Assembly (NCBI GenBank): GCA_025999155.1
Contig: AP026679.1
Location: 666,561-730,560 of the forward strand
Length of the DNA: 64,000 bases
Direction of reading: 5' to 3'
From: Candidatus Dojkabacteria bacterium
GTDB lineage: Bacteria; Patescibacteriota; Dojkabacteria; JAOAGR01
Shown: positions 1 through 37,540 of the stretch, piece after piece
Position numbering within the stretch: the first letter of the stretch is position 1
Layout: every line of letters starts with the position of its first letter
Translations under genes and position numbers: made by a program
Notes under the pieces: generated by a model
Seen by the model: only the letters and a program-made list of their open reading frames with translations
Database searches by the model: none
Told to the model about the DNA's origin: nothing

Positions 1-608
1 TAAGGTATGAAATGGTTAAACTAGCGGATGAGGGTTTGATTTCGAAAGCTCATTCTTCATCTGGTCGTATTCCCACCCTATTAGGATATAAGGTTTTTAT
101 CAAAGAATTGATGCAACCAGAAGATGTGAGTTATCTAACAGAAATAAGATTAAAGAGAGAACTAGATAAATTGAGACTTGAGCTCGACCGTATTCGATTG
201 ATCAAAGGTATTGCAAATTTATTAGCTGATGTAACAAAATATACTGGTGTAGTGTTTACTGAAGAAAGTATTTATTATTCTGGTTTGTATAATCTACTTG
301 ATTATCCTGAATTTGCAGATAAAAATAGTTTTAAGAATATTTTGATTGCCATAGATGATATTAACACACTTGCTAACGTTTTTCGGCGGACATATACAGA
401 TGGTAGAGTAAAGGTGCTGATTGGAAATGAACTGGATGAAGAGATTCTTCATGAATGTTCAATTGTGTTTACCGAAGCAAATATATACAATGGTGAGAGA
501 GTTGTACTGGCTATCATAGGTCCAAGAAGGCTAAATTTCCCTAGAGTCATTCCTATAGTTAAACTAGTCAGAGATATTATAAAAAGACTAGTAGGCTGGG
601 AAGGTTAG
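1..608 (+). CDS. hrcA: Heat-inducible transcription repressor HrcA, truncated at the 5' end by the window edge
   Basis: Translation 'LADEGLISKAHSSSGRIPTLLGYKVF' matches the conserved HrcA 'TSAGRIPT..GYR.YV' segment that follows the winged-helix domain. The ORF runs into the window start, so the N-terminus is missing. Confidence 0.7.
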   Translation, partial: RYEMVKLADEGLISKAHSSSGRIPTLLGYKVFIKELMQPEDVSYLTEIRLKRELDKLRLELDRIRLIKGIANLLADVTKYTGVVFTEESIYYSGLYNLLDYPEFADKNSFKNILIAIDDINTLANVFRRTYTDGRVKVLIGNELDEEILHECSIVFTEANIYNGERVVLAIIGPRRLNFPRVIPIVKLVRDIIKRLVGWEG

Positions 609-1411
609 CGTCCGATCATTTCTTCGATTTGCGGTTTCATGGTCGTCTCGTAGTTTGCATTACCTACTATGCGTCCTAATTGCGTGTAAAATTTTTGTAT
701 TTGTTTTGTATTATCCGGATTTATTACTTCTTTTTCTTCAATCTTAAAGATTGTGAATGTGGGAGTGCTTGTTGCTTGTAGTTGGTTGGAATTAAAGTTG
801 CTAAGATTCTTAATACGGTCTAGATATTTTTGTGATCTAAAGCACTCCACAAACTTATTTGTATCCAGTCTTACCAAGGCTGCATATGTTGTTGCTCTTG
901 CTTCATCGAAATTTTCATCAAAATTTTTATACATGAGCTCCTTATATTCAAAAAAGCTTTTAGGATTTTGTTCGCCAGCACAGTAGGCAGCTATGTGTTT
1001 TTCTGGCCCCTTTAAAAACTGTAAATCTATGAAAATATAGTCCATTACCCCAGGCCTTACGAAATCTTCAAACATTTTTTCAAAAGAAGATTTTACTGGT
1101 GATTGGTATCCGTGGAATCTTGCGCAATTAGGACAATCAAAATCACTGCTCTCTACGATAACAAATTTGGCTTTTGAATTATAAGAGAGAGAAGGCTGAG
1201 ATGACAGCACATTTTCGATTTTTGAGTAGTCTGATATCTCTTTAATCGAGCCGTAGTATGGAAATTTCGGCAGCAAAGAATCAATCTTTCTTCCTAAGTC
1301 TTGAAAACCCCCACCTACAGCAAGCACCGCCGAACTGATGAAAACACCAATTAATAATATTGATATTGATAGCAAAAAGTTTTTATTGTGAATTATCGCT
1401 TTCTTTCTCAT
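605..1411 (-). CDS. DsbA/BdbD-family thiol:disulfide oxidoreductase, membrane-anchored thioredoxin fold
   Basis: 268 aa with an N-terminal hydrophobic anchor. Contains a thioredoxin-type CxxC motif, 'DFDCPNCARFHG', in a DsbA-like context. Confidence 0.6.
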   Translation of the reverse strand: MRKKAIIHNKNFLLSISILLIGVFISSAVLAVGGGFQDLGRKIDSLLPKFPYYGSIKEISDYSKIENVLSSQPSLSYNSKAKFVIVESSDFDCPNCARFHGYQSPVKSSFEKMFEDFVRPGVMDYIFIDLQFLKGPEKHIAAYCAGEQNPKSFFEYKELMYKNFDENFDEARATTYAALVRLDTNKFVECFRSQKYLDRIKNLSNFNSNQLQATSTPTFTIFKIEEKEVINPDNTKQIQKFYTQLGRIVGNANYETTMKPQIEEMIGR

Positions 1412-1619
1412 AAAATAAATCCTTAGTAGTATAAAACTCCTTTAAAGTTTGTTCATCGTATCGGTTTGGTATCACAGTCTCTGAAGCGGAGCTTAATATC
1501 GGGTCAATATCGACATCATTTTGTCTAGCATATAGCTCTATAAACAACCATGCCACAATGGTAATAACAATTACGCTAAGATACACAATAGTATTGATTT
1601 TAAATTTAAATATATTCAT
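1383..1619 (-). CDS. Small hypothetical membrane protein
   Basis: 78 aa with one strongly hydrophobic helix. Overlaps the start of the DsbA-like gene by a few codons and may be co-transcribed. No recognisable family. Confidence 0.3.
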   Translation of the reverse strand: MNIFKFKINTIVYLSVIVITIVAWLFIELYARQNDVDIDPILSSASETVIPNRYDEQTLKEFYTTKDLFYEKESDNSQ

Positions 1620-1826
1620 CTTCTTTCCAGTATTTAACTAAAATGAACGAAGTCTAACTTAAAATACTAACCCAGAGCCAAATTGTCACAATTAACCATA
1701 TGATGCCGAAGACAAAAACACCTAATATTGAGACTTTTGATTCCTTCATCTTAAGAGAATTCATTATACAAATTAATTTACTCTTTTTCATGTTATCAAA
1801 AGACAAGTATTATTCAAATAGACTGT

Positions 1827-3128
1827 TTATATAAATCTTACATTGACATCTAACAGTTTTAAACCGATCTGTCCGTCAATATATTCTACCAATTCGACTC
1901 TGTTGTTTTGTATCAGATCTATGAGATTTATTAGCACACATGGTTTGCCAACAGCATGTTTTTTCCCTGTAGGAGTGTAAGCTATTGAATAGTTACCAAA
2001 AATCAGTTTACTAACACGGGACTGGTTAGTAGACCTAATGAAATCAGGCATGTATATTACGGTTTTTGTGTCTTTTAATGCATCTGTGAACGTCTTACGT
2101 TTGATACCTTCTATTTTTAGATTACTAGTGTGTTGGATTTCTACTGTCGGAGATTTGTAATTAAGTTGCGAATATGTATACGCATCAAGTACAGGCGTAT
2201 CTAATTTACCGAACCTAATAAAGTATTGTTTTGCGGGTTTCAATCCGTAGGTCGTAAATTTATAAGAACCAGGTTTTAAGTTGATTAATGGATCATAACT
2301 GAGAGACAAAGTGCCCAACACTTTTGATTTTTGCTCAAAGTTCTCTTTTTTAAAAATACTGCGTCCCTGGAGTATGGTCTTACCGTTAATATTTTGAAGA
2401 ACCTGTTCCTCAAAAATATGATTAAATACATGTGGTGGGAGAATAAGGTGATATGCGTCGTCCTTTAGCTTATGTGCCTTCTCGGAGTTAATTAGATTGT
2501 ATATGTCTCCTAGGAAACTGAATATTTCCTGGAACTGATCTAGAGAATAGATATCAGAGGATTCGATAGTCCATGAGAATTTATTCTTAAACACTTTATG
2601 TAGACGAAAAAGGCTGTAATTGTAATACTCATCCAGATAGCGGGATGAATAAGCATATTTTGCTCCCTCCTGAATTTCTATGTCCGCGTAGCCATTCTTG
2701 CATCGTAGCATTTGGTCAAGTTCTGATAATAGGTCAGAGATTTTCAGTGCGTATTCTGGGATATCAATTATGTCTGCTAATGTTTTGGAATAAGCCCTGA
2801 CAATAGGGTATATGCCTCTTTCTGGAATAAAAATGGGATAGTGAAATGCGTGAGACGTCCGAAAAGCATTTTTGATGAATTCCTCAAAATTATTTAAGTC
2901 TGTATTACTAATTTCTCCATGAGCAAACCTGTTATTAGCAAAAATAATCGTGAAATATCCATTATTGTACTCTGAATAACTAGTAGGGTTCTGGTATTTA
3001 CCGACAGCATTATCTTCGACTCTTATATTTAGTGACCTAGACTCATTGAAGAATAGAAAATAGTCTATGATTTCACCTTTAGATTTGAGATTACTAAACT
3101 TTTGAGCTAATTTTTCTGCAATAATCAT
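1827..3128 (-). CDS. TldD/PmbA-family protein (putative peptidase-modulator fold), operon member 3
   Basis: 433 aa. The C-terminal 'GNYSIAYTPTGKKHAVGKPCVLINLIDLIQNN' resembles the conserved PmbA/TldD C-terminal 'GDYS....G......I.GNL.D...NI' block. The size is typical for TldD/TldE. Its start overlaps the upstream gene's stop by 4 bp (ATGA). Confidence 0.4.
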   Translation of the reverse strand: MIIAEKLAQKFSNLKSKGEIIDYFLFFNESRSLNIRVEDNAVGKYQNPTSYSEYNNGYFTIIFANNRFAHGEISNTDLNNFEEFIKNAFRTSHAFHYPIFIPERGIYPIVRAYSKTLADIIDIPEYALKISDLLSELDQMLRCKNGYADIEIQEGAKYAYSSRYLDEYYNYSLFRLHKVFKNKFSWTIESSDIYSLDQFQEIFSFLGDIYNLINSEKAHKLKDDAYHLILPPHVFNHIFEEQVLQNINGKTILQGRSIFKKENFEQKSKVLGTLSLSYDPLINLKPGSYKFTTYGLKPAKQYFIRFGKLDTPVLDAYTYSQLNYKSPTVEIQHTSNLKIEGIKRKTFTDALKDTKTVIYMPDFIRSTNQSRVSKLIFGNYSIAYTPTGKKHAVGKPCVLINLIDLIQNNRVELVEYIDGQIGLKLLDVNVRFI

Positions 3129-4462
3129 ATCAAAGTAATATTTTCTGTATTCGTGATAAGACCATAAGAGAATCCGTAAATTCCTACATAGGTCTGGTAT
3201 ACAGGGAGTTCTACAAGTTTATATTTATTACCTTTAATGAGCTTTAATTGAGATGCTTGGGGTATTTCAATATAATTAAAATCAATTAAAATCATATCTC
3301 TTCCATTTGGGCTATATATACCATGTAACGGGTTTAATACTATATTTTCGTGAGTACTCTCTTTTATATATTGTGCATCATAATGTTCTCCGTATAGAAG
3401 TAAGATATGTTGAGACTGAAAATGTTTCGATAGTGTCATAATTAAATTCTCTAAGTCTTTGTCTAGAAGGTCAATGTCTACACTATCTTTAAACATCAAG
3501 CATCTATGTACGAAAGATGGTTTCTGGTAAAATAACGTTTGCCTTAGTGTGATATTGCTGCTTGATGATGCAAAATTGTATCTACCAAATTTGTCATGAC
3601 GTTCGGGGTAGTACTCAGCGTCTAGGAGAGATTCCGTGTATTCAGATATACTGGGGATTATATTGTGTGACGCTTGTTGATATAGTTTTATCAGTATTGA
3701 TGCAGTAATGTGTTCGTCAAGTACAATAAGTGAAGGTGATACATGATTTTCTACACCATATCTATTCGTAAGACTAGCAATAGGTGTTGGGTTGCCAAAT
3801 TGGTTGATTTCCTTAATTATGGCCTCAACATTTACATTTTTGTTTTTGATTTCATTCTGTTGTAGTGGAATGACTTTTTCGAGCAGATTCCCCGTATGTC
3901 TATCCTCCAATTTACAAATAAGATATGATGTACATTCAGAAAATTGTTGGTTTGTATTTTCGTAAGATATTTGCCAGATACTAGATAAGGCATTGACATT
4001 TATGTAAACGAAATATTTTTGCTTGATATAATCATTTAGGGATTCATATATTTGAGTAGTAATATCGCGAATGTAACCAGTATCTAATTCACATATGTCC
4101 ACTTCGGTTATTGAACATTTAGAATCCAACTCAGTTTCAATCTTTATTGGTGTTGTATGCACTTTATGTCCTTTATACGACTTTATAATATTATCTAGCT
4201 CCTGGTACAAACGGGTAGCAACATCTTGTAAATGCATTCTATCGGATGATGCGAAGAGTGTAAAACCATGCTTCGAGAACTTATGTAAATTGATACCCTC
4301 AAACAATTTTATAAATTCTCTCTCAATAATCCCATTAAATGTCAAAAGAGAATAAATGTTACCCTTTTGCAACCTTACAAAAATTTGGCTGTGTTCTTTA
4401 CTGGATCTTTTAAATAATAGCCGTATATGATCTGCATAATTTTCAAAAAAGTCATTTTGCAT
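3125..4462 (-). CDS. TldD/PmbA-like protein (divergent), operon member 2
   Basis: 445 aa. The C-terminal 'HGIYSPNGRDMILIDFNYIE' resembles the TldD/PmbA 'TG(D/x)FS..G.gf.IENG' region. It is paired head-to-tail with a second TldD/PmbA-like gene, as in TldD/TldE heterodimer operons. No HExxxH motif was seen. Confidence 0.3.
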   Translation of the reverse strand: MQNDFFENYADHIRLLFKRSSKEHSQIFVRLQKGNIYSLLTFNGIIEREFIKLFEGINLHKFSKHGFTLFASSDRMHLQDVATRLYQELDNIIKSYKGHKVHTTPIKIETELDSKCSITEVDICELDTGYIRDITTQIYESLNDYIKQKYFVYINVNALSSIWQISYENTNQQFSECTSYLICKLEDRHTGNLLEKVIPLQQNEIKNKNVNVEAIIKEINQFGNPTPIASLTNRYGVENHVSPSLIVLDEHITASILIKLYQQASHNIIPSISEYTESLLDAEYYPERHDKFGRYNFASSSSNITLRQTLFYQKPSFVHRCLMFKDSVDIDLLDKDLENLIMTLSKHFQSQHILLLYGEHYDAQYIKESTHENIVLNPLHGIYSPNGRDMILIDFNYIEIPQASQLKLIKGNKYKLVELPVYQTYVGIYGFSYGLITNTENITLI

Positions 4463-4583
4463 TTGGCGCTGCCTCTAAAGGTAGTCCTACTGAATTTAAT
4501 AATATGCCTATGATACTACGCTTTATCTATCCTTGTAAACACATTACCTAGAATTGTTCTTTTAACAGATTATTTTGATGTTG

Positions 4584-7469
4584 TTATCTGTTGAGTTGGG
4601 ACGTTTCTAAATCTCTGATGTATTGTTTGACTTGGTTTGCAACTGCAAGCTCACATACTATTCCCCAGAATCCACAGCTTGAAACATGTTGTACGACTTT
4701 TTTTAGATTATTGAAACAACTAATATCCAACAGACTTTTGTGTTTGCTTCTTAATGTTTCGCTAATGTACTCGACTAAGTTTCTCATGCCTTTTAGGTAC
4801 TTGGTAGACGCAGTTTGTTTTTCTATACCAAGCATATTCATCTTTATCCGAAATAAATCTATATATACCCCATCTATTATATCTGGATGTAATTCATATA
4901 ATCGGAAAACATTAATCGTTCTTGAGACATTTGCATATATTCTAAAGGATGTCGATCGTGTTAATCCAGCTGCTGCTATTCTCTTTTTGATTGCTATTAT
5001 GGAAGATTTATTTCGATAATCTGGAGTAATCAGTGAAAGATTTTTGTATCCTTGATTGCGTAAACGATATATTTGTTGCAGTAAATAATCTAATGCACTA
5101 GTTTCATATGGAGGCAAGATCAACAAAACTTCTTTTTCTCTGACTCTTTCTAGAATCGTCTCCAACATTGTAATGATAACTTCTGGCTCCTTCGTCGACG
5201 AAAACACGATGCCATCATAGTTTTGTTTTTCTGTGGGTATTAATTCATCTATGAGATGTATATACACTTTCGTTGCTGTAGGAATGAACTCTTCTGGTTG
5301 AGAGGATTTTTTATGTCGATGGTGCATTTTCTGGGATATATAATCTTGTTCGCGGTCAAACTCTAATTCTTTTGACGTTTGTTGAATTCCACTAGCCTCT
5401 TCTATGGTGCTTTCGAGTACTTCTAAGGCTACGTTTTCAGGTAATTCCTTCGAAGAATTAATAATTTGCTCCAGCGACCTCCCCCACATTTTCATTTGAT
5501 CCTTTGTTGAGACTCCTTCTACTATTGAGAGTTGTGGATTTTCCTGGTTTACATCATATAAATCAAAGTCTTCTTCTATTAAATTTAGGATCTGAGATAA
5601 ATCTTTTTTCCGGGGGGAAGATGACTTTACGTGGTGAGAGTATTGTAAGGGAAATTTTCTTTCAATTCGAACTTTTGAATCTTCATATAGAACAGCATGG
5701 GAAGATTCTTTATTGGTATCTAAATGTTGTTGCCCGTGTCGCTTACTGTCGAACGACCAATTTGCTTTATCTTTCTGACTCAAACTAACGTCATTTTCAA
5801 AATGATGTGGGTTTGTAGTAGTTACGTCACCAATCTCTTGGGACTCTGGTTTTTGCTGAATCTGAGCTGAGGTCAAATTTTTATTTGTCCGATATAGGTC
5901 AGCATGATGGTCATCGGGTATATCCGTCGCAAACTTCATTTGCGAGGATTCCTCCTCTGGCTCAATCTTTGGCTCAATGTTCTTTTCAGCTGACTGATAA
6001 TTAGTCTTGAGATAATCACTTCGAATGAATTCAAATATCTGTCCTGTTATTGGATCTATAGCTATTTTTTCTCCTTCCTTAATAATTTTATGAACTAGAG
6101 GAACTCCTGTAATCACAGGAGCCTTAAAATATTCATATAGTCTTTGAGCTAATATGTCAGAATCTTCTTCTATGATTAATCCAGCTACTTTTAGATTAGA
6201 TAAGATATTCTCATCTCCGTGTAAGATCAATATATTATGGGGGCCAGCATTCTCATGAGAAAATGTAGCAATTCCCTCTGCCTCCTGCATTCCTGCATAA
6301 TGTTTGCCTTCAAGTAGGACGGCTTTCCTTTCATGAGTGACATTTGTATTTTTTTGATAGTTATTTAAATGTTCTTGTTTTTCTTTTGTTGTGTCGTTCA
6401 TATCTTTATCATTGAATACAAAATTCACTAATACATCTTTACGTTCTTCTTTAGTAACTGGCATCTTGAAGTTGTTTGGGTTCTCTGGGGCATTATTTGT
6501 TAAAACGACTCGCTTTTGGATAGAATCTGATGTTTCAATTGAATGTTTTTTATTTATACTTTGTACAAAATGTATCCATATTTTTCCCGCTTCGTAGGAC
6601 CATATTACGTGCTGTGGGTTTCCTAATTCTTCCTCAATGATTTTTCCTGTTTTGGCTAATATTATGATATGTTTATCATCCAATTTTTGCTTTTTTTTCC
6701 AGGAAGGAGATATTACGACTTTCTGAATAGGTTCAGAAACACTCTGGTGTCGCAAAAACATATGTTCCTGGTATGAAACATATTTTTCTTCTATTTTGTC
6801 TACTGTTTTATCGTAAATATAAAGGTCTGGTTGTATACCAAGCTTTTCTGCTTCTTCGTAAAGTCCAAAATATGCTTCTATGTGCAATTTTGTATTATCA
6901 TGTGTAACCATGTCGCTTGTGTAGACATGACCGGATATTTCACACTGAATTGATTTCTGGACTATTACAACGATTTTATAAACATTGTCAAAGAAGAAAT
7001 TCAATTTTGTTTGTTGGTCTTCTAGAATTTGTACATAAATATCATGAATAGATTTAACTAAGTCTTCGATTCCTTTGACACCATAAACTTCATAAGGCTT
7101 ATGTTCCAACTCTTCAGATTGATTATTTAGTATCAATGCTCTTATATTGACTGTAGCATCTGAAAATCCAGATATTTTAGAATATAATGCGGAAATATTA
7201 TTGTGTATCGTTTTAGGAAATGATGTGTTTTTAATTACTTGGATGATATGAGATGAATCTTCTTCTAAACGTGCCTTTTGATAATATAGCCTTATTTCGG
7301 TCAGATCAAAGTAGTTTTGTAATACAAGATAGCTTAAAACAAAACCAGCAGGAATCGGTAATTTTTCCCTTGCGAGATGCCCTAATAGTGCTACTGAGTC
7401 GCCGACATATTGTGAGTCTTCGATTATGATATTTTGTAACAGATCTGCAATGTTAGTATTCGATATCAT
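4584..7469 (-). CDS. PEP synthase/pyruvate phosphate dikinase-like protein with a degenerate (histidine-less) swivel domain and a long low-complexity insert
   Basis: N-terminal match to the PPDK_N nucleotide-binding domain: 'LPIPAGFVLSYLVLQNYF' (compare 'G.PVPPGF.IT..AY..F') and 'GNPQHVIWSYEAGKIWIHFVQS' (compare 'G.PQDIEW....GKLY.LQSRP'). The central PEP-utilizer mobile-domain-like block 'GLIIEEDSDILAQRLYEYFKAPVITGV....GEKIAIDPITGQIF' has the phospho-His position substituted. A ~290-aa charged/low-complexity region follows. The C-terminal block 'DGVYIDLFRIKMNMLGIEKQ ... CGFWGIVCE' resembles the PEP-utilizers_C TIM-barrel ('DGFSIGSNDLTQLTLGLDRD ... GICGQ'). Confidence 0.5.
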   Translation of the reverse strand: MISNTNIADLLQNIIIEDSQYVGDSVALLGHLAREKLPIPAGFVLSYLVLQNYFDLTEIRLYYQKARLEEDSSHIIQVIKNTSFPKTIHNNISALYSKISGFSDATVNIRALILNNQSEELEHKPYEVYGVKGIEDLVKSIHDIYVQILEDQQTKLNFFFDNVYKIVVIVQKSIQCEISGHVYTSDMVTHDNTKLHIEAYFGLYEEAEKLGIQPDLYIYDKTVDKIEEKYVSYQEHMFLRHQSVSEPIQKVVISPSWKKKQKLDDKHIIILAKTGKIIEEELGNPQHVIWSYEAGKIWIHFVQSINKKHSIETSDSIQKRVVLTNNAPENPNNFKMPVTKEERKDVLVNFVFNDKDMNDTTKEKQEHLNNYQKNTNVTHERKAVLLEGKHYAGMQEAEGIATFSHENAGPHNILILHGDENILSNLKVAGLIIEEDSDILAQRLYEYFKAPVITGVPLVHKIIKEGEKIAIDPITGQIFEFIRSDYLKTNYQSAEKNIEPKIEPEEESSQMKFATDIPDDHHADLYRTNKNLTSAQIQQKPESQEIGDVTTTNPHHFENDVSLSQKDKANWSFDSKRHGQQHLDTNKESSHAVLYEDSKVRIERKFPLQYSHHVKSSSPRKKDLSQILNLIEEDFDLYDVNQENPQLSIVEGVSTKDQMKMWGRSLEQIINSSKELPENVALEVLESTIEEASGIQQTSKELEFDREQDYISQKMHHRHKKSSQPEEFIPTATKVYIHLIDELIPTEKQNYDGIVFSSTKEPEVIITMLETILERVREKEVLLILPPYETSALDYLLQQIYRLRNQGYKNLSLITPDYRNKSSIIAIKKRIAAAGLTRSTSFRIYANVSRTINVFRLYELHPDIIDGVYIDLFRIKMNMLGIEKQTASTKYLKGMRNLVEYISETLRSKHKSLLDISCFNNLKKVVQHVSSCGFWGIVCELAVANQVKQYIRDLETSQLNR

Positions 7470-7590
7470 ATCTCTTTACATTACATTCTATATTTTTTAA
7501 TTAATTTTGAAAGTCATGCCATTAATGAGTGTGAAGAGAAAAGATACACGGTTGTTTGGCAGTCGAAGATAAAATTTGCTAAAATAAACT

Positions 7591-10014
7591 ATGGACCAGT
7601 ATTTTACAAACAGTGCAAAAAATACTCTACAAAAAGCTGCAGAATATGCATTTACTACGGGAACTACTTATATTGATACGGAGCATCTGCTAAGAGCTCT
7701 AATCGATGATGATGTAGCAAGTAGAGTATTGGATAAACTTTCTGTTGATATACAGAGTCTAAAAAACGATATGGAAGGTTATTTGCCTTATCGTCGTAGT
7801 ATCTCGGGTCTTAGCAGTGCTGATCTGACACCAAGAGCCAAGCAATCTCTTAACCTTGCTTTTACTGAGGCACAAAATTTAGGACATTCTTACGTAGGAA
7901 GTGAACATTTACTATTAGGTTTGATTCGTGAGGGGGAAGGTTTAGGTTATCAACTTTTGACACGGTATGGTGTAGATTACGATAAGGCAAAAAAGGCCGT
8001 TATTGATGTTGTTGGTGAGGGTTCAAGGGATGCGACTAAATCTTCTACACCAACATTAGATAAATACTCCAGAGATTTGACTAAATTAGCAAAAGAAGGA
8101 AAGATCGATCCAGTAATTGGTAGATCCAACGAAATAACAAGAGTAATACAGATACTATCACGTAGGCGTAAAAATAATCCCGTTTTGATTGGTGATCCTG
8201 GTGTTGGTAAAACAGCAATTGTGGAAGGACTTGCTTTACGTATTGTTTCTGGGAATGTTCCAGATGTGCTGTTAAATAAGCGTGTTTTAGCACTTGATAT
8301 GGGAAGTTTAATTGCCGGTACAAAATATCAAGGTGAGTTTGAAGAGAGAGTAACAAATATTATTAAAGAAGTTGCTAAAGCCGCAGGGAGTGTAATTTTA
8401 TTTATTGATGAGCTTCATACTATTGTTGGAAGTGGGGCAGCCGAAGGTAAAACTGATTTATCCAATCTTATTAAACCAGCTTTGGCACGTGGAGAACTTC
8501 AGACTATTGGAGCAACAACTCTGACAGAATACAAAAAGTATATCGAAAAAGATCCTGCTCTAGAAAGACGTTTTCAACCTGTTTTAGTTAACGAGCCTAC
8601 TATAGAACAGTCGATTGAAATTCTTAAAGGACTACGTGATAAATATGAAGCCCACCATAAAATAAAAATCAGCGATGATGCAATAATCGCGGCAGTCGAA
8701 TTATCAGAAAAATATATTAATGATCGTTTTTTACCTGATAAAGCCATTGATGTATTAGATGAGGCCGCTTCTATGTTGAGATTACGTACATCTAGTGAGC
8801 CGGATAATATTCGCGAATTAAAATTGAAAATTTCTAATTTAGAAAAGGAAAGGGAAGCTTTGACAAGAGCCCAAAAACATGAGCAGGCGGCAATGGTTAA
8901 ACAAGAGATCGAATTATTAAAAGAGGAATTAATGCCATTAGAGGTAGAGTGGCGTAAAGCAGTAGGAACTGGCACTCCTACATTAGGTGTAGCTGAGATT
9001 GCTGAGGTGATTTCAAACATGACAGGTATTCCTGCAAATAAGATTAATGTAAAAGAGAGGGAGATGTTATTAAATCTTGAAAATATTATTCACCAGCGTG
9101 TCATTGGTCAGGAGAAGGCTGTATCTGCAATATCTGAAGCTATTCGAAGGTCGAGACTGGGACTGGCAGATGAAAGTAGACCTATTGCATCATTTATTTT
9201 TCTTGGGCCTACGGGGGTTGGAAAGACAGAGCTAGCTAAAACCATTGCAGAAGTAATTTTTGGTTCAGAGCAAAACATGATCAGGCTCGATATGAGTGAA
9301 TATATGGAAAAGCACTCCATTGCAAGGCTAATCGGAGCACCGCCAGGTTATGTTGGATATGAAGAAGGAGGACAATTAACTGAGAAAGTCAGACGTAAGC
9401 CATATTCGTTAGTTTTATTAGATGAGATAGAAAAAGCCCATCCTGATGTAACCAATGTCCTATTACAAATTCTTGAAGATGGTAGACTGACTGATGGTCA
9501 AGGGCGTGTTGTCAACTTTAAAAATACTATTATCATCGCAACTTCTAATATAGGCTCAAATTTGATTTCTCAATTTTATGATAGGAAAAAGGAACAGCCC
9601 CAAAGTAAATTAATTAAGTTTCAGGAAGAGAAAATAGATACTGAAGATTTAAAGAAATTAGTAATGAATGAGCTGAAAAAATTCTTTAGAGTTGAGCTTT
9701 TGAATAGATTTGATGAAATTATTATTTTTGAACCATTAAGGCATGATCAGTTAAGAGATATTGCAAGACTACATTTACAAAAACTTATAGCTAAACTCAG
9801 TAAGACTGGTATTCAGCTACAATATACGGATGAATTACTAGATTTGATTGTGGAGAAAGCCTACAACCCACAGATGGGAGCAAGAGAGATTCGTAGATTT
9901 ATTCAAAAAGAAGTAGAGAATAAGATTTCTTCTACTATACTGCGTGCCGCTAATACGAAGCAACTTAATTTGGTCATTAAAGATGGACAAATCGAAATAA
10001 TTAGCCAGGAGTGA
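7591..10014 (+). CDS. clpC: ATP-dependent Clp protease ATP-binding subunit ClpC (class III AAA+ chaperone)
   Basis: 807 aa with N-terminal Clp_N repeats. Two AAA+ modules carry Walker A motifs 'GDPGVGKTA' and 'GPTGVGKTE'. The short middle linker domain and overall length are typical of ClpC rather than ClpB. Confidence 0.85.
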
Positions 10015-10062
10015 TAATGATTCACGATTGACGTTAGAACTGATAAGTCAGATAATTACTAA

Positions 10063-11544
10063 ATGTTTACGCCAATCATAGGTCTTGAAATACATTTGCA
10101 ATTAAAGACAAAATCTAAGGTCTTTTGCTCCTGTCCGACTAGTGAAGCAGATCCTAATACTAATATTTGCCCTATTTGTTTGGGATATCCTGGAGCAATG
10201 CCTAATCTTAACAAAGAAGCTGTGCTACAAGCGATACGTATGGGTTTAGCATTAAATCTAACTATTGCTAGAAAAACTAGTTGGGATCGTAAGAATTATA
10301 TGTATCCTGATTTGTTCAAAGGTTATCAAATTAGTCAATTGTATGAACCTATTTGTGGAGAAGGATCGGTAGAGGTAATAGTTAGAGACCGTAATAATTA
10401 TCATTCAAAAAATTTTTATACGAAAAGTATTGGTATTTTCCGGGCCCATTTAGAGGAAGATACTGCCAAATCAATACATCAGGATGATAAGACTTTATTG
10501 GACGGAAATAAGGCGGGTTTACCATTACTTGAAATAGTATCGAAACCGGAAATGTACTCTGTGGATGAGGCTGTATCTTTTGCAAAAACTATTAGAAATC
10601 TTGCACGGTGGTTTAATGTATCGGAATGTAATCTTGAAATGGGTCACATGCGATTTGATGCTAATGTTTCATTGTGTATTGATGATGTAGACATTCAAAA
10701 TAAAACATATGAACAATGGAAAAATACGATTAGATTTACTCCTATAGTAGAGATCAAAAATTTAAATTCTTTTGGTAATTTACAGTCCGCCCTGGAGTAT
10801 GAAATTAATCGACAGATCGACGAGTATAATCGCACAAAAAAGATTTACTCGGTTGGTAGCAAAGAAACACGAGGGTGGAATGAGCAACTGCAAATTACAT
10901 ATTCTCAAAGACAAAAAGAAGAAGTCAATGAATACCGTTATATTCCTGAGCCTGATATACCTGAATTACATATATCTGACGATGACTTGGAAAGTATTAG
11001 AAATGAAATGCCAAAACATCCTAATACAGTGAGGCAAGAATTGTCACTACAAAATATTCCTTTACAAGCGATTGATGTATTAACTGAAGAAAGAATCTTT
11101 TACGATATATTTGTCAAAATTACTCAAGGTGATGGATCCATCAGTCAAAAAGTTGCCAATACGCTCACCAATGACTTAGCATCAGAGGTACGAAGTTTGC
11201 ATGGTTCTCAAACACTCGACGAATGGATCGAAGGATTAAGAAAAGTATTTGAAGCCTTGAATAATAACACGATTTCTTCGACGGAATTTAAGACTATTTT
11301 AAGAAATCACAAATCCGGAGAGAATGATTGGTTGACGTTATTAGATGAAATAGGTAAAGCAGAGTCTATTGATGTTAAAGAAATTTTAAGAGATGCATTT
11401 CAGAAGCATGCTCATGTAGTCGAACAGATCAAAGCAGGTAAAGAAAGCGCGAAAATGTTTTTTGTGGGTATAGTTATGCGTGAGACGAAAGGGAAAGCTG
11501 ATCCTAATCAAGTCAAAAAATTACTTGAAGAAATGTTGTCCTAA
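10063..11544 (+). CDS. gatB: Asp-tRNA(Asn)/Glu-tRNA(Gln) amidotransferase subunit B
   Basis: 493 aa. The N-terminus 'PIIGLEIHLQLKTKSKVFCSC' is the canonical GatB start. A C-terminal GatB/YqeY-like domain is present. Confidence 0.9.
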   Translation: MFTPIIGLEIHLQLKTKSKVFCSCPTSEADPNTNICPICLGYPGAMPNLNKEAVLQAIRMGLALNLTIARKTSWDRKNYMYPDLFKGYQISQLYEPICGEGSVEVIVRDRNNYHSKNFYTKSIGIFRAHLEEDTAKSIHQDDKTLLDGNKAGLPLLEIVSKPEMYSVDEAVSFAKTIRNLARWFNVSECNLEMGHMRFDANVSLCIDDVDIQNKTYEQWKNTIRFTPIVEIKNLNSFGNLQSALEYEINRQIDEYNRTKKIYSVGSKETRGWNEQLQITYSQRQKEEVNEYRYIPEPDIPELHISDDDLESIRNEMPKHPNTVRQELSLQNIPLQAIDVLTEERIFYDIFVKITQGDGSISQKVANTLTNDLASEVRSLHGSQTLDEWIEGLRKVFEALNNNTISSTEFKTILRNHKSGENDWLTLLDEIGKAESIDVKEILRDAFQKHAHVVEQIKAGKESAKMFFVGIVMRETKGKADPNQVKKLLEEMLS

Positions 11545-11615
11545 TAATATTTTTTTTTGGTATCTCGATTTCGTCTGACTTTATAAATTAGGATTATCTC
11601 AATATAATTGTCAAT

Positions 11616-13490
11616 ATGGAGCAAAATTACATCAGAAATTTTTGCATAATTGCTCATATAGATCATGGTAAATCGACGCTAGCTGATAGATTACTTGAGA
11701 TAACAAATACTATAGATAAACGTAAGTTACATGATCAATATCTTGATACTTTAGAGTTGGAGCAAGAAAGAGGTATTACCATTAAATTACAAACTGCACG
11801 TATGCATTACAATTTGGATGGGCAGGAATATATTTTAAATTTAATTGATACCCCAGGACATGTTGATTTTGCTTATGAAGTTTCACGTTCGCTTGCCGCT
11901 TGTGAAGGGGCTGTATTACTAGTAGATGCAACTCAAGGTGTAGAAGCTCAAACTATATCAAATGCTTTTAAAGCTTTAGAACACGACCTTACAATTATAC
12001 CTGTAGTAAACAAGATTGATTTACCAAACGCGGAACCAGAGAAAAGAGCACAAGAAATGTGTGATTTACTGGGTTTTCGCATGGATGAAATCATTTACAC
12101 TTCTGGTAAGACCGGCATTGGAGTCGATGAATTAATTAGAGCTATTATACAAAGAGTACCTCCACCTAAAGGTAGTAAAGATAATCGTTTGCAATGCTTG
12201 ATTTTTGATTCGTTTTTCGATGAACATAAAGGAGTTATTGCTCAGGTAAAGGTTGTCAATGGAGAAATTAAACCTGAGGATTTAGCAAGAAAAAGAAAAT
12301 TAAGGTTCATTGCTACGCAAAACGATATAGCACCGTTAGAGATCGGCTATGTTACACCTATTTTTATAAAAAGTGATGGTTTGAAAGTAGGTGAGGTAGG
12401 ATATATAGCTACCGCCCAAAAAGATATACAACAAATTAGTGTAGGAGATACGGTGACGTTTGCGGATGAGCCGGCTGATGCTTTGGTGGGTTATCAAAAG
12501 CCAAAGGCAATGCTTTTTGCCAGTTTGTATCCGACAGACGCTGATCGATACTCTGATTTTCGGGATGCTCTGGAAAAACTTGCTTTAAATGACGCATCTT
12601 TAAGTTATGTTCCAGAAGTCTCTACTGCTTTGGGTGCTGGTTTTAGGTGCGGTTTTTTGGGGCTTTTACATATGGAAATAGTTCAAGAAAGACTTGAACG
12701 AGAATACAATGTAGATCTAGTAGTTACAGCACCGTCAGTAGAGTATAAGGTCAAACTGTATAAAGATAAGGTGGCTCGTAATAAAGATAAATATCATATT
12801 TTTGAAGAAAATGGAGAATATTATGTTAAGATTACATCAGCAGCGGAGTTACCGGAAGAAGCTTTAATTGAGGAAATTCAAGAACCTTGGTGCGAAGTCG
12901 AAATTATCACACCACAACAGTATATCGGCGACATAATGCAATTATGTCAAGAAAAACGAGCGATATATAAAGATACTGTCTATGTACACACTTCGAGTAA
13001 TGTATTAGCAAGTAATAGAGTGATTATAAAGTATGAAATGCCTTTTCATGAAATTATTACAGATTTTTTTGATAGATTGAAATCTATATCGCATGGTTAC
13101 GCTTCTTTGGATTATAGATTCAAGGGTTTTATTGCTTCAGACATTGTTAAATTAAGTATATTGATCAATGGGCAAGTAATTGATGCCTTATCGATGCTCA
13201 TTGAACGCAAGAAAGCTTTATATGAAGGTAAAAGATTAGTAGAAAAACTTAAAACTTTAATACCTCGCCATCAGTTTAAGATTCCTATTCAGGCCGCTAT
13301 CGGGTCAAAAGTAATTGCTCGAGAAGATATACCCCCTTATCGTAAAGATGTGCTCAAAGGTTTATATGGTGGAGATCATCGTCGTAAAATGAAGCATCTT
13401 GAACGACAAAAAGAGGGTAAGAAAAGGTTAAAACAATTTGGTTCTGTGACCATACCGCAGCAAGCATTTCTTGCTGTATTAAGACAATGA
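11616..13490 (+). CDS. lepA: Elongation factor 4 (LepA)
   Basis: 624 aa. N-terminal GTPase 'IRNFCIIAHIDHGKSTLADRLLE', 'DTPGHVDF' and 'NKIDL' motifs. Conserved LepA C-terminal domain. Confidence 0.95.
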   Translation: MEQNYIRNFCIIAHIDHGKSTLADRLLEITNTIDKRKLHDQYLDTLELEQERGITIKLQTARMHYNLDGQEYILNLIDTPGHVDFAYEVSRSLAACEGAVLLVDATQGVEAQTISNAFKALEHDLTIIPVVNKIDLPNAEPEKRAQEMCDLLGFRMDEIIYTSGKTGIGVDELIRAIIQRVPPPKGSKDNRLQCLIFDSFFDEHKGVIAQVKVVNGEIKPEDLARKRKLRFIATQNDIAPLEIGYVTPIFIKSDGLKVGEVGYIATAQKDIQQISVGDTVTFADEPADALVGYQKPKAMLFASLYPTDADRYSDFRDALEKLALNDASLSYVPEVSTALGAGFRCGFLGLLHMEIVQERLEREYNVDLVVTAPSVEYKVKLYKDKVARNKDKYHIFEENGEYYVKITSAAELPEEALIEEIQEPWCEVEIITPQQYIGDIMQLCQEKRAIYKDTVYVHTSSNVLASNRVIIKYEMPFHEIITDFFDRLKSISHGYASLDYRFKGFIASDIVKLSILINGQVIDALSMLIERKKALYEGKRLVEKLKTLIPRHQFKIPIQAAIGSKVIAREDIPPYRKDVLKGLYGGDHRRKMKHLERQKEGKKRLKQFGSVTIPQQAFLAVLRQ

Positions 13491-20913: not shown

Positions 20914-22272
20914 ATGTTAGTCAGTATCAATCCAGCAAACGGACAGAAAAGAGCAGAATTTCCCGAATTGTCAGACGAAGAATTGTCATCTAAGCTAGAT
21001 TTAGCAGCTCAGGCCTTTTCAAAATGGAGATTTTCAAGTCTTGATACTCGCAAGGATTTGATGAATAAACTCATACGGAATTTAGATATACACAAAGATT
21101 ACTATTCCAAATTAATTACGACAGAAATGGGCAAACCCATTAGGCAGTCGATTGCTGAGATCGATAAGTGTATAACTATGGCAGAGGTTTACACTAACGA
21201 TATTGATCGTTTCTTACAAGATGAATATGTAAATACGGCCCATAAGGAAAGCTTTATCACATTTGAACCTCTCGGAGCAATACTTGCAGTGATGCCTTGG
21301 AATTTTCCGTTTTGGCAGGTTCTGCGATTTGCCGTGCCAAATGTCCTTTTAGGTAATGTTTGTCTTTTGAAACATGCCTCGAATGTTCAAGGTTGTGCCA
21401 GAGAGTTAGAAAAGCTTTTTGTAGAATCAGGTTTTCCATTAGGCGTATTTCAAAATTTACCAATTACTGCCGCTAAAGTCGAAAAGGTAATAAGGAATCC
21501 TCATGTAAAGGCCGTTACTCTTACAGGAAGTGAAGCTGCTGGAGCAAGTGTTGCTGCGATTGCTGGAAGTGAGATTAAAAAGACCGTTTTGGAGTTAGGT
21601 GGTAGTGATCCTTTTATCGTTCTAGCTGATGCGGATTTAATGCCTGTGTGTCAGAATGCTGTACATGCACGACTCCGAAATGCAGGACAAGCATGTACAT
21701 CAGCAAAAAGGTTTATTGTGGTAAAAGATGTTGTTGAGGAGTTTGCGCTTAATTATGCTAATTACTTCAGAAACGTTGTAGTTGGTGATCCCATGGGTGA
21801 TGTGGATGTTGGACCTTTGGCCTCGGAAGCTGCTTTAAGAGAAGTAGAATTAAAAGTACAGAAAAGTGTAGAAATGGGAGCAAATGTTTTGGTTGGAGGT
21901 AAAAGAATCCAAAGAGAAGGGTTTTACTTCGAGCCAACTATTCTGACTAATGTACGTAAAGGCATGCCTGTGTATGAAGAGGAAATTTTTGGGCCCGTTG
22001 CCTCAATCATTGTTGCAGAAGATGAAGATGATGCAATAAGAATTGCTAATGATACTAAATATGGTTTAGCAGCATCTATCTGGACAAAAGATATTCAAAA
22101 GGCGAAAAATTTAGCACGAAAAATCGAAGCAGGTAGTGTGTATATAAATGCTGTAGTTTCTTCTGATGTACGAATGCCTTTTGGCGGGATAAAAAAATCT
22201 GGTTATGGAAGAGAATTATCTTTATATGGTTTAAGGGAATTTGTGAATATAAAAACTATAATAGTAGAGTAG
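20914..22272 (+). CDS. NAD(P)+-dependent aldehyde dehydrogenase (succinate-semialdehyde dehydrogenase-like)
   Basis: 452 aa. ALDH catalytic Glu motif '[10 protein letters not shown]', catalytic Cys '[12 protein letters not shown]' and a Rossmann 'TLTGSEAAG'. Confidence 0.85.
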
Positions 22273-23006: not shown

Positions 23007-25346
23007 ATGGCCGATCCTAACATAGAGAAAATTCGTAAATATGTCAGAGCTGCTAACTATATTGCAGCGGCTCAAATTTATTTACAAGCAAATTTTGAGT
23101 TAAAAGAGAGATTGTCGTTTGAACATATTAAACCAAGACTACTTGGGCATTGGGGCACATGTCCTGGTATTAATTTTGTTTACGCGCACTTACAATATTT
23201 TGTCAAGAAGACTCGAGAACATGTTTTATTTGTCAATGGTGTTGGTCATGGATTTCCTGCATTACAAGCAAATTTATTTATAGAAGGTAGTCTTACACAT
23301 TTTTATCCTCATATTTCGCGCGATGCCGTAGGACTTGCTTATATAATACGGAATTTTAGTTGGCCTTATGGTTTTCCAAGTCATTCGAATCCTGCTGCAC
23401 CAGGAGTGATACTTGAAGGCGGTGAATTAGGTTATTCGTTAGCAACAGCATATGGAGCAGCTTTGGATAATCCCGATTTGATTGTTGTTTGCCTTGTTGG
23501 GGATGGAGAAGCTGAGACTGGACCTTTGGCGACATCGTGGCATCTAAATAAATTTGTACATCCGAGAACTAACGGTATTGTTTTACCGATTTTGCATCTA
23601 AATGGTTATAAAATTTCGGGACCTACTATCTTTGGTCGAATGTCTACATCTGAATTACTTTCTTTATTTCAAGGTTATGGTTATGATCCAATATTTGTTG
23701 AAGACATTCCGGGTGATGACATTTACGTTCGCATGATTGAAGCTCTGGATAGGTCTTACTCTAAAATCAAACAAATACGCGAACGTGCTCGATCAGGTCA
23801 AAATGTCGTTGCACCAACTTTTCCGATGATCATACTTAAAACTCCAAAAGGCTGGAGTGGCATTCGATACATAGGTAGTAATAGAATAGAAGGAAATTGT
23901 TTGTCTCATCAGGTAGTTGTCAATAATGCAAAGACCGATATTCAGGAGCTGGAATTGTTAGAGGAATGGTTAGGCGCTTATAGATTTTCAGAATTATTTG
24001 ACTCTGAAAAAGGCTTTATACAAGATATTTTAGATATAATTCCAGATGATGATTTGAAAATTGGTTTGAGCAAGTATGCTCATTTTGATCGGCAGAAAAT
24101 CAAGCTCATGGTCCCTAAAGCTGTGGTATTTAGCGAGGATGCTGCTCAACCAGGGACATTAGGATCTAGTTCTATGCGTCGTACAGGAGAATATTTAAAT
24201 GAAGTAATCAAATTAAATGAATTTAATAGGAATTTTCGTATTTTTTCTCCTGATGAAACGTATTCAAACAAGATAGATAAAGTTTTTGACTTTACGACAA
24301 GAGCTTTTGTGTGGCCAATAATGCCTTGGGATAAAGACATAAGTCAAGATGGCCGTGTAATTGAAATGCTAAGTGAACATGCTTTATTTGGGCTTTTGCA
24401 GGGGTATGTGTTAACAGGTAGGTATGGCGTCTTCATATCGTATGAAGCTTTCGTACAGATTATAAGCAGCATGGCTGATCAATATCTTAAATTTGTTAAA
24501 ATCGCGCGTGAAATACCCTGGCGCCCGTCTTATGCATCTTTGAATATAATCCTGACTTCTTCGGGTTGGCGACAGGATCATAACGGTTTTTCTCATCAGA
24601 ATCCGGGTTTTATCAGCGGCTTATTGGAAAAAAATGATCCTTGTGTGAAATTTTACTTCCCTCCGGATGGAAATACTACGTTACAAGTTCTTGAAAAAGC
24701 TTTAAATCTTGAAAATGGCATCAATGTTATTGTAGCAGGTAAGACTCTTGAGCCGAGATGGCTTACTCCGGAGCTTGCCTATAGACAAGTAGAAGAGGGG
24801 GTGATGATTTGGGATTTTGCTAGTGACGATGATCCTCATTTGGTTTTCTGTGCTATCGGTGATTACATGACAAAAGAAATGATGGCTGCAATTGATTTGA
24901 TCAAGCAAGATTTGCCTTTTGTTCGTATTAGATTTGTGAATATCACTGACTTAACTGTAATAAGACAAAAAAACTTAGACGATTATTTTACGCATGATAA
25001 GCCTGTAATAATAAATTTTCATGGTTATCCTGATAGCATTAAAAAACTTTTGTTCGACTATAAGACGAGTAATAGGTTTGATATTAGAGGATTTGTAGAA
25101 AATGGATCAACGACAACTCCTTTTGACATGCAGGTAAGAAATATGACTTCTCGTTGGCACATAGTCTTATCTGCAGTGGAGAGACTTAGAGATATGCAAA
25201 TTATTTCAGCCAATGAGTTTCAATACATCACCAGCAAATATCATCAGAAGTTGAATTTACATAGGGAGTATATAATCCAAAATGGAGTAGATTTACCAGA
25301 AATCAATGAATGGGAGTGGAGGAAAGATCATGTGGGGTCAGTCTAG
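23007..25346 (+). CDS. xfp: Xylulose-5-phosphate/fructose-6-phosphate phosphoketolase (ThDP-dependent)
   Basis: 779 aa. Conserved 'GHWGTCPGINFVYAHL' and 'EGGELGYSLATAYGA' phosphoketolase signatures. The length is typical. Confidence 0.9.
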   Translation: MADPNIEKIRKYVRAANYIAAAQIYLQANFELKERLSFEHIKPRLLGHWGTCPGINFVYAHLQYFVKKTREHVLFVNGVGHGFPALQANLFIEGSLTHFYPHISRDAVGLAYIIRNFSWPYGFPSHSNPAAPGVILEGGELGYSLATAYGAALDNPDLIVVCLVGDGEAETGPLATSWHLNKFVHPRTNGIVLPILHLNGYKISGPTIFGRMSTSELLSLFQGYGYDPIFVEDIPGDDIYVRMIEALDRSYSKIKQIRERARSGQNVVAPTFPMIILKTPKGWSGIRYIGSNRIEGNCLSHQVVVNNAKTDIQELELLEEWLGAYRFSELFDSEKGFIQDILDIIPDDDLKIGLSKYAHFDRQKIKLMVPKAVVFSEDAAQPGTLGSSSMRRTGEYLNEVIKLNEFNRNFRIFSPDETYSNKIDKVFDFTTRAFVWPIMPWDKDISQDGRVIEMLSEHALFGLLQGYVLTGRYGVFISYEAFVQIISSMADQYLKFVKIAREIPWRPSYASLNIILTSSGWRQDHNGFSHQNPGFISGLLEKNDPCVKFYFPPDGNTTLQVLEKALNLENGINVIVAGKTLEPRWLTPELAYRQVEEGVMIWDFASDDDPHLVFCAIGDYMTKEMMAAIDLIKQDLPFVRIRFVNITDLTVIRQKNLDDYFTHDKPVIINFHGYPDSIKKLLFDYKTSNRFDIRGFVENGSTTTPFDMQVRNMTSRWHIVLSAVERLRDMQIISANEFQYITSKYHQKLNLHREYIIQNGVDLPEINEWEWRKDHVGSV

Positions 25347-30259: not shown

Positions 30260-30336
30260 TGGCTCGAGAGGTGGGACTTGAACCCACGACCCAGCGGTTA
30301 ACAGCCGCTCGCTCTACCGACTGAGCTACTCTCGAA
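30260..30336 (-). tRNA. tRNA-Asn (anticodon GTT), CCA encoded
   Basis: The reverse complement folds as a cloverleaf. Acceptor stem TCGAGAG/CTCTCGA. D arm GCTC-AGTCGGT-AGAGC. Anticodon stem AGCGG/CCGCT with loop CTGTTAA. T arm GGGTC-GTGGGTTCAAGTCCCAC. Ends in GCCA. Confidence 0.85.
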
Positions 30337-35255: not shown

Positions 35256-35341
35256 TGGCGGAGAGTGTGAGATTCGAACTCACGAGGGTTTCCCCAACTG
35301 CCTTTCCAGAGCAGCGCCATAGACCACTAGGCGAACTCTCC
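35256..35341 (-). tRNA. tRNA-Ser (anticodon GGA), class II with long variable arm, CCA encoded
   Basis: Reverse complement: acceptor GGAGAGT/ACTCTCC, a 3-bp D stem, anticodon loop CTGGAAA, a long variable arm TTGGGGAAACCCTC, T arm GTGAG-TTCGAAT-CTCAC, and a GCCA end. Confidence 0.8.
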
Positions 35342-37465: not shown

Positions 37466-37540
37466 CGCGGGATGGAGCAGTGGCAGCTCGTCAGGCTCAT
37501 AACCTGAAGGTCGCTGGTTCGAATCCAGCTCCCGCAACCA
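37466..37540 (+). tRNA. tRNA-Met (anticodon CAT), possibly initiator-type (C1·A72 mismatch), CCA encoded
   Basis: Acceptor CGCGGGA/TCCCGCA with position 1 unpaired. D arm GAGC-AGTGGCA-GCTC. Anticodon stem TCAGG/CCTGA with loop CTCATAA. T arm GCTGG-TTCGAAT-CCAGC. Discriminator A, then CCA. Confidence 0.8.

Follow-up and report, generated by a model that had tools for sequence, protein, structure and literature searches.

The window analysed here is a 64-kb stretch of DNA of low GC content (~34%) from a Candidatus Dojkabacteria bacterium. It carries three minus-strand genes, here called g1, g2 and g3, which stand beside a divergent clpC gene and among housekeeping genes. We showed that the three proteins retain the folds of phosphoenolpyruvate (PEP) synthase (PpsA) and of TldD but not the catalytic residues of these enzymes, and that the trio is conserved and lineage-specific. 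We place high confidence in the descriptive core of this account, namely a conserved trio of pseudoenzymes that is neither a dikinase nor a TldD peptidase. The open reading frames (ORFs) are real, beyond what chance would give, because they run for 433-961 codons at 34% GC and because no fewer than 12 other loci hold orthologs of them, at 18-75% identity; spurious ORFs were considered and rejected, since conserved orthologs exist. The trio is thus real, conserved, unannotated and narrow in distribution, and its function is what we infer below.

The trio and its neighbourhood

A first-pass annotation of the window had described the three genes as tightly packed, with an ATGA overlap of the last two. 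The overlap was confirmed by direct reading: the minus-strand g2/g3 junction is ...GATATGATT..., with the ATG of g3 at 3128-3126 and the TGA of g2 at 3127-3125, and g2 and g3 are translationally coupled. Tight packing holds for this pair but not for g1 and g2, which are parted by a spacer that contains no terminator-like site and a single promoter-like site, at chance level. Over the whole of 1300-7700, no intrinsic terminator was found and promoter-like sites occur at chance density.

A genome collection, look-ups of exact proteins and one metagenome scan supplied the loci, which were mapped with hidden Markov models of the families; a reciprocal metagenome scan with the g3 profile gave two loci, one of them a duplicate. 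The complete trio, in the same order and on the same strand, is present in 11 loci (the window, L003, L004, L006, L007, L008, L009, L021, L022, L023 and L024), among which g1 identity falls as low as 36-38%, and it is cut by contig ends in L005 and L025. The gene-neighbourhood check proposed with the first-pass annotation therefore found the trio recurring in related genomes, with one rearranged exception (L001, discussed below). The g2/g3 overlap of 4 bp recurs in 10 of the 12 loci, the two remaining junctions being at +6 and +22 bp, and clpC is divergent from g1 in all loci long enough to include it. In most members, the block lepA-gatB-clpC/g1-g2-g3-trx-hrcA-mutS is syntenic as a whole. Ortholog identity to the window is 67-95% for clpC, 53-92% for gatB, 31-75% for g3, 36-67% for g1 and from under 30 to 50% for g2. 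Full-length relatives of g1 come from Dojkabacteria-type metagenome-assembled genomes (MAGs) only; the closest database member is a cluster mate that is 98% identical to g1, GenBank BDQ05091.1, annotated as 'hypothetical protein [Candidatus Dojkabacteria bacterium]'.

The coordinates of the locus are collected in Table 1; gatB and lepA are further housekeeping flanks of the trio. Two conserved small ORFs with one transmembrane (TM) segment each lie on the same strand downstream of g3, sORF50 between g3 and the Thioredoxin_4 gene (trx) and sORF78 overlapping the start of trx by 29 nt. L003 and L021-L024 contain orthologs of these ORFs, and g1-g2-g3-sORF50-sORF78-trx may make up one array on this strand.

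Table 1. Positions of the trio, its parts and its flanking features in the window
Feature	Coordinates	Strand	Remarks
hrcA	12-608	plus	housekeeping flank
trx	605-1411	minus	membrane-anchored Thioredoxin_4 protein; flank
sORF78	1383-1619	minus	78 aa; N-terminal TM
sORF50	1654-1806	minus	50 aa; C-terminal TM
g3	1827..3128	minus	433 aa; divergent PmbA/TldE-type, no metal site
g2 stop/g3 start ATGA overlap	3125..3128	minus	read directly
g2	3125..4462	minus	445 aa; TldD/PmbA fold (predicted), no metal site, fast-evolving
g1-g2 spacer	4463..4583	minus	121 bp; 76-232 bp in relatives
g1	4584..7469	minus	961 aa; PpsA/PPDK-derived, all three catalytic sites lost
g1 residues 725-961, PEP-utilizers_C-type TIM barrel	4587..5297	minus	remodelled, invariant pocket
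g1 residues 654-724, conserved helical hairpin before barrel	5298..5510	minus	helices 655-674 and 678-716 (model)
g1 residues 486-653, polar/charged insert	5511..6014	minus	predicted disordered, pLDDT 25-47
g1 residues 380-485, swivel (PEP-utilizers mobile) domain	6015..6332	minus	pLDDT 82-89; no phospho-histidine
g1 residues 311-379, insert between ATP-grasp and swivel	6333..6539	minus	predicted disordered, pLDDT 25-32; gappy and variable in alignment A1
g1 residues 1-310, ATP-grasp (PPDK_N) fold	6540..7469	minus	nucleotide/Mg site decayed
Divergent g1/clpC control region	7470..7590	.	CIRCE-like repeat at 7556-7582, overlapping predicted clpC promoter
clpC-type AAA+ unfoldase	7591..10014	plus	Clp_N, AAA, AAA_lid_9, AAA_2, ClpB_D2-small; divergent from g1

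Ancestry and catalytic sites of g1

In Pfam, PPDK_N alone passes on g1 (residues 22-314, E=1e-23). NCBIfam gave partial matches to PpsA, PigC/RedH and Rph that are confined to the N-domain, together with a weak match (E=0.0036) between residues 410-480 and the C-terminal PEP-utilizer domain of pyruvate kinase, and a PDB sequence search likewise matched the N-domain only. The swivel and the barrel were undetected by Pfam and had no strong match in NCBIfam, and none of the three proteins showed Pfam, NCBIfam or PDB sequence similarity to any other enzyme class. Among 5.8 billion proteins, we found 19 full-length homologs of g1 at 37-98% identity (alignment A1), with more than 130 invariant columns across 37-68% identity. 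Aligned with hhalign against a canonical PpsA profile (A6), this family gave a probability of 100% over residues 15-953. The swivel region alone reached PpsA at 86% (E=5e-6), and the C-terminal region alone reached PpsA residues 617-713 at 91-93% (E ~1e-6 to 2e-7). With the C-terminal 322 residues as query, phmmer also reached canonical three-domain PpsA among 1.84 billion 50%-identity cluster representatives, with weak E-values; the remodelled C-domain itself is found in only 13 of these clusters at E<1e-30. These alignments show that g1 descends from a three-domain PEP synthase. They uphold the first-pass assignment of the 961-aa gene to the PEP synthase/pyruvate phosphate dikinase (PPDK) family, with PPDK_N, swivel and PEP-utilizers_C barrel all present.

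Three parts of the AlphaFold model of g1 (predicted local distance difference test score, pLDDT, 69) are folded with confidence, namely 1-310, 380-485 and 725-961, and residues 655-716 form a helical hairpin. An insert of ~290 charged residues had been described between swivel and barrel. It is indeed present, but measures ~240 residues, of which only ~170 are predicted to be disordered, the rest being the conserved hairpin. The disordered part (residues 484-653) is poorly conserved and is made of 30% D/E/K/R and 30% S/T/N/Q; two short conserved motifs, LYEDxKVxIE and KDxSxLLxLVEED, lie inside it. The hairpin reads VWGKSLExIIsaSK ... SKEFxFDxEExYI, with W662, G663, S665, L666, S673, K674, E701, F704 and D705 invariant, and the barrel that follows is the best-conserved part of the protein in A1. 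In most g1 orthologs, for example P0006, P0012 and P0016, the C-terminus is a short tail rich in K/R (...KKKGRR, ...RRRRAD-IK and ...KLKRRA); the window g1 and P0002 have no such tail and stop directly after the last helix.

The protein had first been called a catalytically degenerate dikinase in view of a replaced phospho-carrier histidine in its swivel domain. Degenerate it is, and more widely than claimed, since it has also lost the sites of the ATP-grasp domain and of the barrel. As a reference for the sites, we used the canonical PpsA P0021 (GGK, VRSS, DIEW, QARP, GGRTCH, MIEIP, GSNDLTQ, GICGQ). In the ATP-grasp domain, GGK corresponds to VG(K/D/N/E/H)S in the g1 family, with D in the window protein, and PQDIEW, which holds the Mg ligands, corresponds to PQxVxW, the D being replaced by H/I/Q/E/L/M and the E by I/T/N/S/F. 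The arginine of VRSS is ambiguous and may survive: MAFFT pairs it with R/K110, and hhalign shifts it by three residues. In the swivel, GGRTCH is matched by EDESxIL(A). Profile-profile alignment sets TCH opposite IL440, and the phospho-histidine H421 faces L440, which is invariant in 17/17 sequences; none of them keeps the histidine at this position, and the alternative of a misaligned motif was not borne out. In the barrel, the Mg-binding Glu of MIE becomes S849, the N-D of GxNDLTQ becomes F873-R874 and the catalytic Cys becomes S/T917. The string CGFWGIVCE, quoted earlier as a barrel motif, does lie in the barrel, in its last strand, but it is not the catalytic-Cys motif. The other quoted strings (LPIPAGFVLSYL, GNPQHVIWSYEAGKIW, EDSDILAQRLYEYF and DGVYIDLF...LGIEKQ) were also all found in g1.

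The positions that are invariant in canonical PpsA are retained by the g1 family at 28/85 in the ATP-grasp domain, 10/38 in the swivel and 7/37 aligned in the barrel. The ex-catalytic positions are variable within the family in the ATP-grasp domain and are fixed to new residues in the swivel, where L440, S437, A441, L444, Y447 and F448 are invariant, and in the barrel. From these patterns, the ATP-grasp site looks like a case of decay, and the swivel and barrel sites look like remodelling under constraint. Since the ATP-grasp ligands have decayed, the swivel histidine is an invariant leucine and the PEP/Mg residues of the barrel have given way to a new invariant set (S849, F873, R874, K876, N878), the comparison shows that the phosphotransfer chemistry of PpsA should be beyond g1. 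The three-domain architecture of PpsA/PPDK is kept, and the phospho-histidine of the swivel motif GGxT(C/S)H, the nucleotide/Mg ligand set of the ATP-grasp domain, made up of the lysine of GGK, the D-x-E of PQDIEW and the Q/R of QxRP, and the PEP/pyruvate site of the barrel, which mark the functional enzymes, are missing.

The TldD/PmbA-fold pair

The two downstream proteins of ~440 residues had been described as TldD/PmbA-type and as a possible TldD/TldE heterodimeric peptidase. The fold was upheld, by PmbA_TldD_3rd in g3 and by the predicted fold of g2. In g3, this Pfam domain is matched with E=1e-14, and it is also found in 8/8 orthologs. The g3 family profile reaches PmbA 1vpb in the PDB (E=0.0016), and g3 as a single sequence gave no PDB match. 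For g2, no significant match was obtained in Pfam, NCBIfam or PDB sequences, profile searches included, and a g2 profile search for further homologs added one protein. The relatedness of g2 and g3 is itself undetectable (hhalign probability 2%), and the proposed TldD/PmbA nature of g2 rests on its fold. The Pfam check suggested for the trio thus succeeded for PPDK_N in g1 and PmbA_TldD_3rd in g3, and failed to recover a swivel or barrel domain or anything in g2.

The peptidase did not withstand inspection of its site. In E. coli TldD, the catalytic site is formed by H262-E263-xxx-H267 and C454, the HExxxH motif lying on a central helix and the third metal ligand of such sites being a C-terminal Cys or Asp; TldE conserves none of these residues, and its homodimers have neither catalytic site nor activity (PMC5810440). 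We found no conserved copy of HExxxH or HExxH in 11 g2 and 8 g3 orthologs. In g3, zero columns reach 70% His or Cys, and g2 has two semi-conserved His, both in the N-terminal domain and both lost in the most divergent members, L008 and L009. No TldD-type partner is encoded within the g1-g2-g3 module. Because the HExxxH and Cys metal site is missing in both, g2 and g3 are, on the residues they carry, both TldE-like and would form a pair without a protease subunit; they have the TldD fold without the TldD metal site and fit the description of TldE/PmbA.

Interpretation and comparison with known systems

The region between g1 and clpC bears a repeat that resembles CIRCE (controlling inverted repeat of chaperone expression), whose consensus is TTAGCACTC-N9-GAGTGCTAA. 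The repeat reads TTGGCA-N15-TGCTAA in the window and TTAGCA-N15-TGCTAA in its family form, and its position overlaps that of the predicted clpC promoter (TTGGCA-18-TAAAAT). It is found at the orthologous site in L001, L003, L004, L006 and L008, and partially in L007 and L009. A strict CIRCE search gave no match, and the outer-hexamer pattern relaxed to 2 mismatches gave chance-level intragenic matches only. The hrcA gene is located near the trio and clpC. The conserved repeat suggests that clpC, and perhaps also the divergent g1, may be under HrcA control in Dojkabacteria.

We propose that the three pseudoenzymes make up a module specific to Dojkabacteria and that selection maintains it for a binding or scaffold role linked to ClpC; taken as a whole, we consider this explanation evenly balanced between right and wrong. 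Among the options that had been listed at first, a repurposed pseudoenzyme fits best. The translational coupling of g2 and g3 suggests a 1:1 complex. The pair would form a hollow-shell heterodimer, like TldD/E or TldE2, able to bind an extended polypeptide but not to cut it. As its partner, g1 would act as a scaffold or bind a ligand, using the remodelled pocket of its barrel, which is conserved, the swivel domain and the short motifs conserved in its long disordered linkers. The assembly would serve protein quality control with the divergent ClpC, whose promoter bears the candidate HrcA (CIRCE-like) operator, and the module is possibly tied in this way to ClpC/HrcA proteostasis. Considered alone, this mechanism, a non-catalytic binding complex linked to ClpC proteostasis, is tentative and distinctly unlikely to be correct as it stands. 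A more detailed version is conjectural, with only a slight chance of holding in full: the TldE-type cage of g2/g3 would hold unfolded polypeptide by beta-strand augmentation, and g1 would sense a ligand or dock through its pocket and swivel, possibly threading its linker motifs into the cage, and would hand substrates to, or regulate, the HrcA-controlled ClpC, replacing in function the missing adaptors of the MecA/McsB type in a minimal genome of the Candidate Phyla Radiation (CPR).

A number of observations weigh against a joint binding role. In L001 (JGI Ga0500594_0000002, a 916-kb contig), the sole exception in gene order, g2-g3 lies ~6.5 kb from g1, beyond clpC/gatB, and is accompanied by an inverted trx/sORF78; from this rearrangement it is evident that g2-g3 is a unit which moves independently of g1. 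The g1-g2 spacer measures 76-232 bp in every locus, whereas g2 and g3 overlap, and separate transcripts are possible. With lepA, gatB and mutS equally conserved as neighbours, the adjacency of the trio may be inherited order and weak evidence for function, and a divergence much faster than that of clpC and gatB is also compatible with weak constraint. The repeat upstream of clpC retains only the outer hexamers of CIRCE and their 15-nt spacing, without the inner CTC/GAG, and the window offers no chaperone gene upstream of which a second copy could be compared. The structure model of g2, built from 5 sequences, reaches only modest confidence (pLDDT 59.5), and physical contact among the g1, g2 and g3 proteins is something that we infer. 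The synteny of the whole lepA-to-mutS block, unrelated housekeeping genes included, the separation seen in L001 and the constant spacer would all be expected if g1 and g2/g3 were unlinked relics with unrelated individual roles, adjacent through inherited order in a narrow and slowly rearranging clade. We regard this as somewhat unlikely, given that the most divergent members (L006, L008, L009) have an unbroken trio despite different downstream neighbours, and that all three genes share the loss of catalytic residues and a similarly raised rate of divergence.

The fixed polar residues of the barrel pocket (K734, D752, Y788/E789, D817-Y-R-N-K821, N847, S849, D871, R874, K876, N878) could equally mean a new catalytic activity and not mere binding, which is a further difficulty for a scaffold. 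That the ex-catalytic positions of barrel and swivel are fixed and not drifting, unlike those of the ATP-grasp domain, and that the barrel is the best-conserved region of g1, would agree with a neo-functionalised enzyme in which this pocket is a new active site, g2/g3 perhaps hydrolysing peptides by a non-canonical site as well. Such a reading is improbable: g1 lacks a phospho-carrier residue as well as conserved ATP/Mg ligands that could provide energy or phosphate, g3 has no conserved His or Cys, the semi-conserved His of g2 are N-terminal and lost in L008/L009, and no sequence similarity ties the proteins to another enzyme class. Peptide processing, in the form of a peptide-maturation machine such as those of ribosomally synthesised peptides with post-translational modification (RiPPs) or of regulated proteolysis, had been raised as a function for a TldD/TldE protease with a dikinase-like scaffold. 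It draws on the fold of g2 and g3 and on the known processing of microcin B17 and CcdA by TldD/E (PMC5810440), and is largely refuted by the absence of the metal site from both subunits in every ortholog. Moreover, no precursor-like peptide or modifying enzyme is encoded nearby, the small ORFs being the two conserved single-TM proteins by the thioredoxin-like gene, the context is one of housekeeping genes, and no literature was found that pairs TldD with PEP-utilizing enzymes. We hold this function to be very improbable indeed and rule out a RiPP cluster. A defence system is ruled out as well, by the lack of any PADLOC match and by core-genome synteny. A phage affiliation is likewise ruled out, PHROGs having given one insignificant match (E=0.0076), and Rfam gave nothing in window positions 1-12000.

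The metabolic repertoire of Dojkabacteria is among the most reduced within the CPR (PMC7304191), and the trio, ~5.6 kb of coding sequence, is retained in Dojkabacteria genomes of ~0.74 Mb. That tiny genomes keep so much sequence for proteins which can no longer carry out their families' chemistry speaks for a non-enzymatic role under selection. With three dikinase sites lost and two of them re-fixed to new residues, g1 is a natural example of the repurposing of a whole protein, and a 'TldE-only' heteropair is relevant to an old question, the role of PmbA/TldE shells that are catalytically silent. There is also a practical consequence: the JGI names of the g1 family ('phosphoenolpyruvate synthase/PPDK', 'phosphohistidine swiveling domain protein') would lead metabolic reconstructions to credit these genomes falsely with gluconeogenic PEP synthesis.

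Elsewhere in the window, a phosphoketolase (XFP) gene (23007-25346, plus strand) adjoins an aldehyde dehydrogenase gene (20914-22272); both are part of a small central-metabolism complement, which is relevant to whether a functional PEP synthase is to be expected. Two paralogous oligoendopeptidase F (Peptidase_M3) genes (45991-47796 and 48466-50277) lie close together on the minus strand, so that bona fide metallopeptidases are encoded elsewhere in the window. Two minus-strand ORFs, 31905-34913 (1002 aa) and 35499-37058 (519 aa), have no Pfam match and lie in a stretch with a GC content of 0.39-0.41 against ~0.33. This raised-GC stretch is not rRNA and contains tRNA genes at 30263-30335, 35259-35341 and 37466-37537; it could represent lineage-specific large proteins or an acquired island.

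The first-pass annotation knew of no described system that pairs a dikinase-like scaffold with a TldD/TldE module. Our literature searches (TldD with Patescibacteria or with PEP-utilizing enzymes, and Dojkabacteria with PEP synthase) found no description of such a pairing, or of a catalytically silent TldE/TldE-like heteropair, and the nearest database entry is the hypothetical protein mentioned above. Close to the pair among known systems are E. coli TldD/TldE (PDB 5nj5), which are also two adjacent paralogs of ~440 residues with the same fold. Unlike TldD, neither g2 nor g3 has the HExxxH and Cys454 metal site. Sequence comparison, moreover, fails to pick up g2 and recovers a single one of the three Pfam domains in g3. 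PmbA/TldE homodimers, whose function is unknown, are represented in the PDB (3qtd, 1vl4, 1vpb, 6j6a). In contrast to these, g2 and g3 are two very different paralogs, encoded by a coupled gene pair beside a PpsA-derived pseudoenzyme and clpC.

For g1, a close known family is PpsA/PPDK, and especially the multimeric archaeal PpsA (PDB 8a8e, 9dae). While it keeps their three-domain architecture, g1 has Leu for the phospho-histidine and replacements of the ATP/Mg ligands and of the PEP, Mg and Cys residues, and has gained a helical hairpin and two long inserts predicted to be disordered; Pfam is blind to its swivel and barrel. Rifampin phosphotransferase (5hv1/5hv6) and the prodigiosin ligases PigC/RedH also combine PPDK_N with a swivel and act on other substrates. 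They differ from g1 in their C-terminal domain and retain the catalytic His and the ATP site, whereas g1 keeps the PpsA barrel without the histidine. Finally, PpsA-like proteins of the P0020 type occur in other Dojkabacteria-type MAGs (829-853 aa; 'PEP-utilizing enzyme' at NCBI), at loci (L010 5676-7290, L011 9950-12511) that are not adjacent to g2/g3 or clpC. They share the C-terminal module of g1 (GLRRTTSF..., DGIILD...), and their swivel is also without the histidine, with GGATSD in place of GGxTSH. Compared with g1, their ATP-grasp motifs are more intact (VRSS, DIEW), they still score with PF00391 and they have no long inserts. The P0020 type looks like an evolutionary intermediate, and its comparison with g1 shows a graded series of histidine-less PpsA derivatives.

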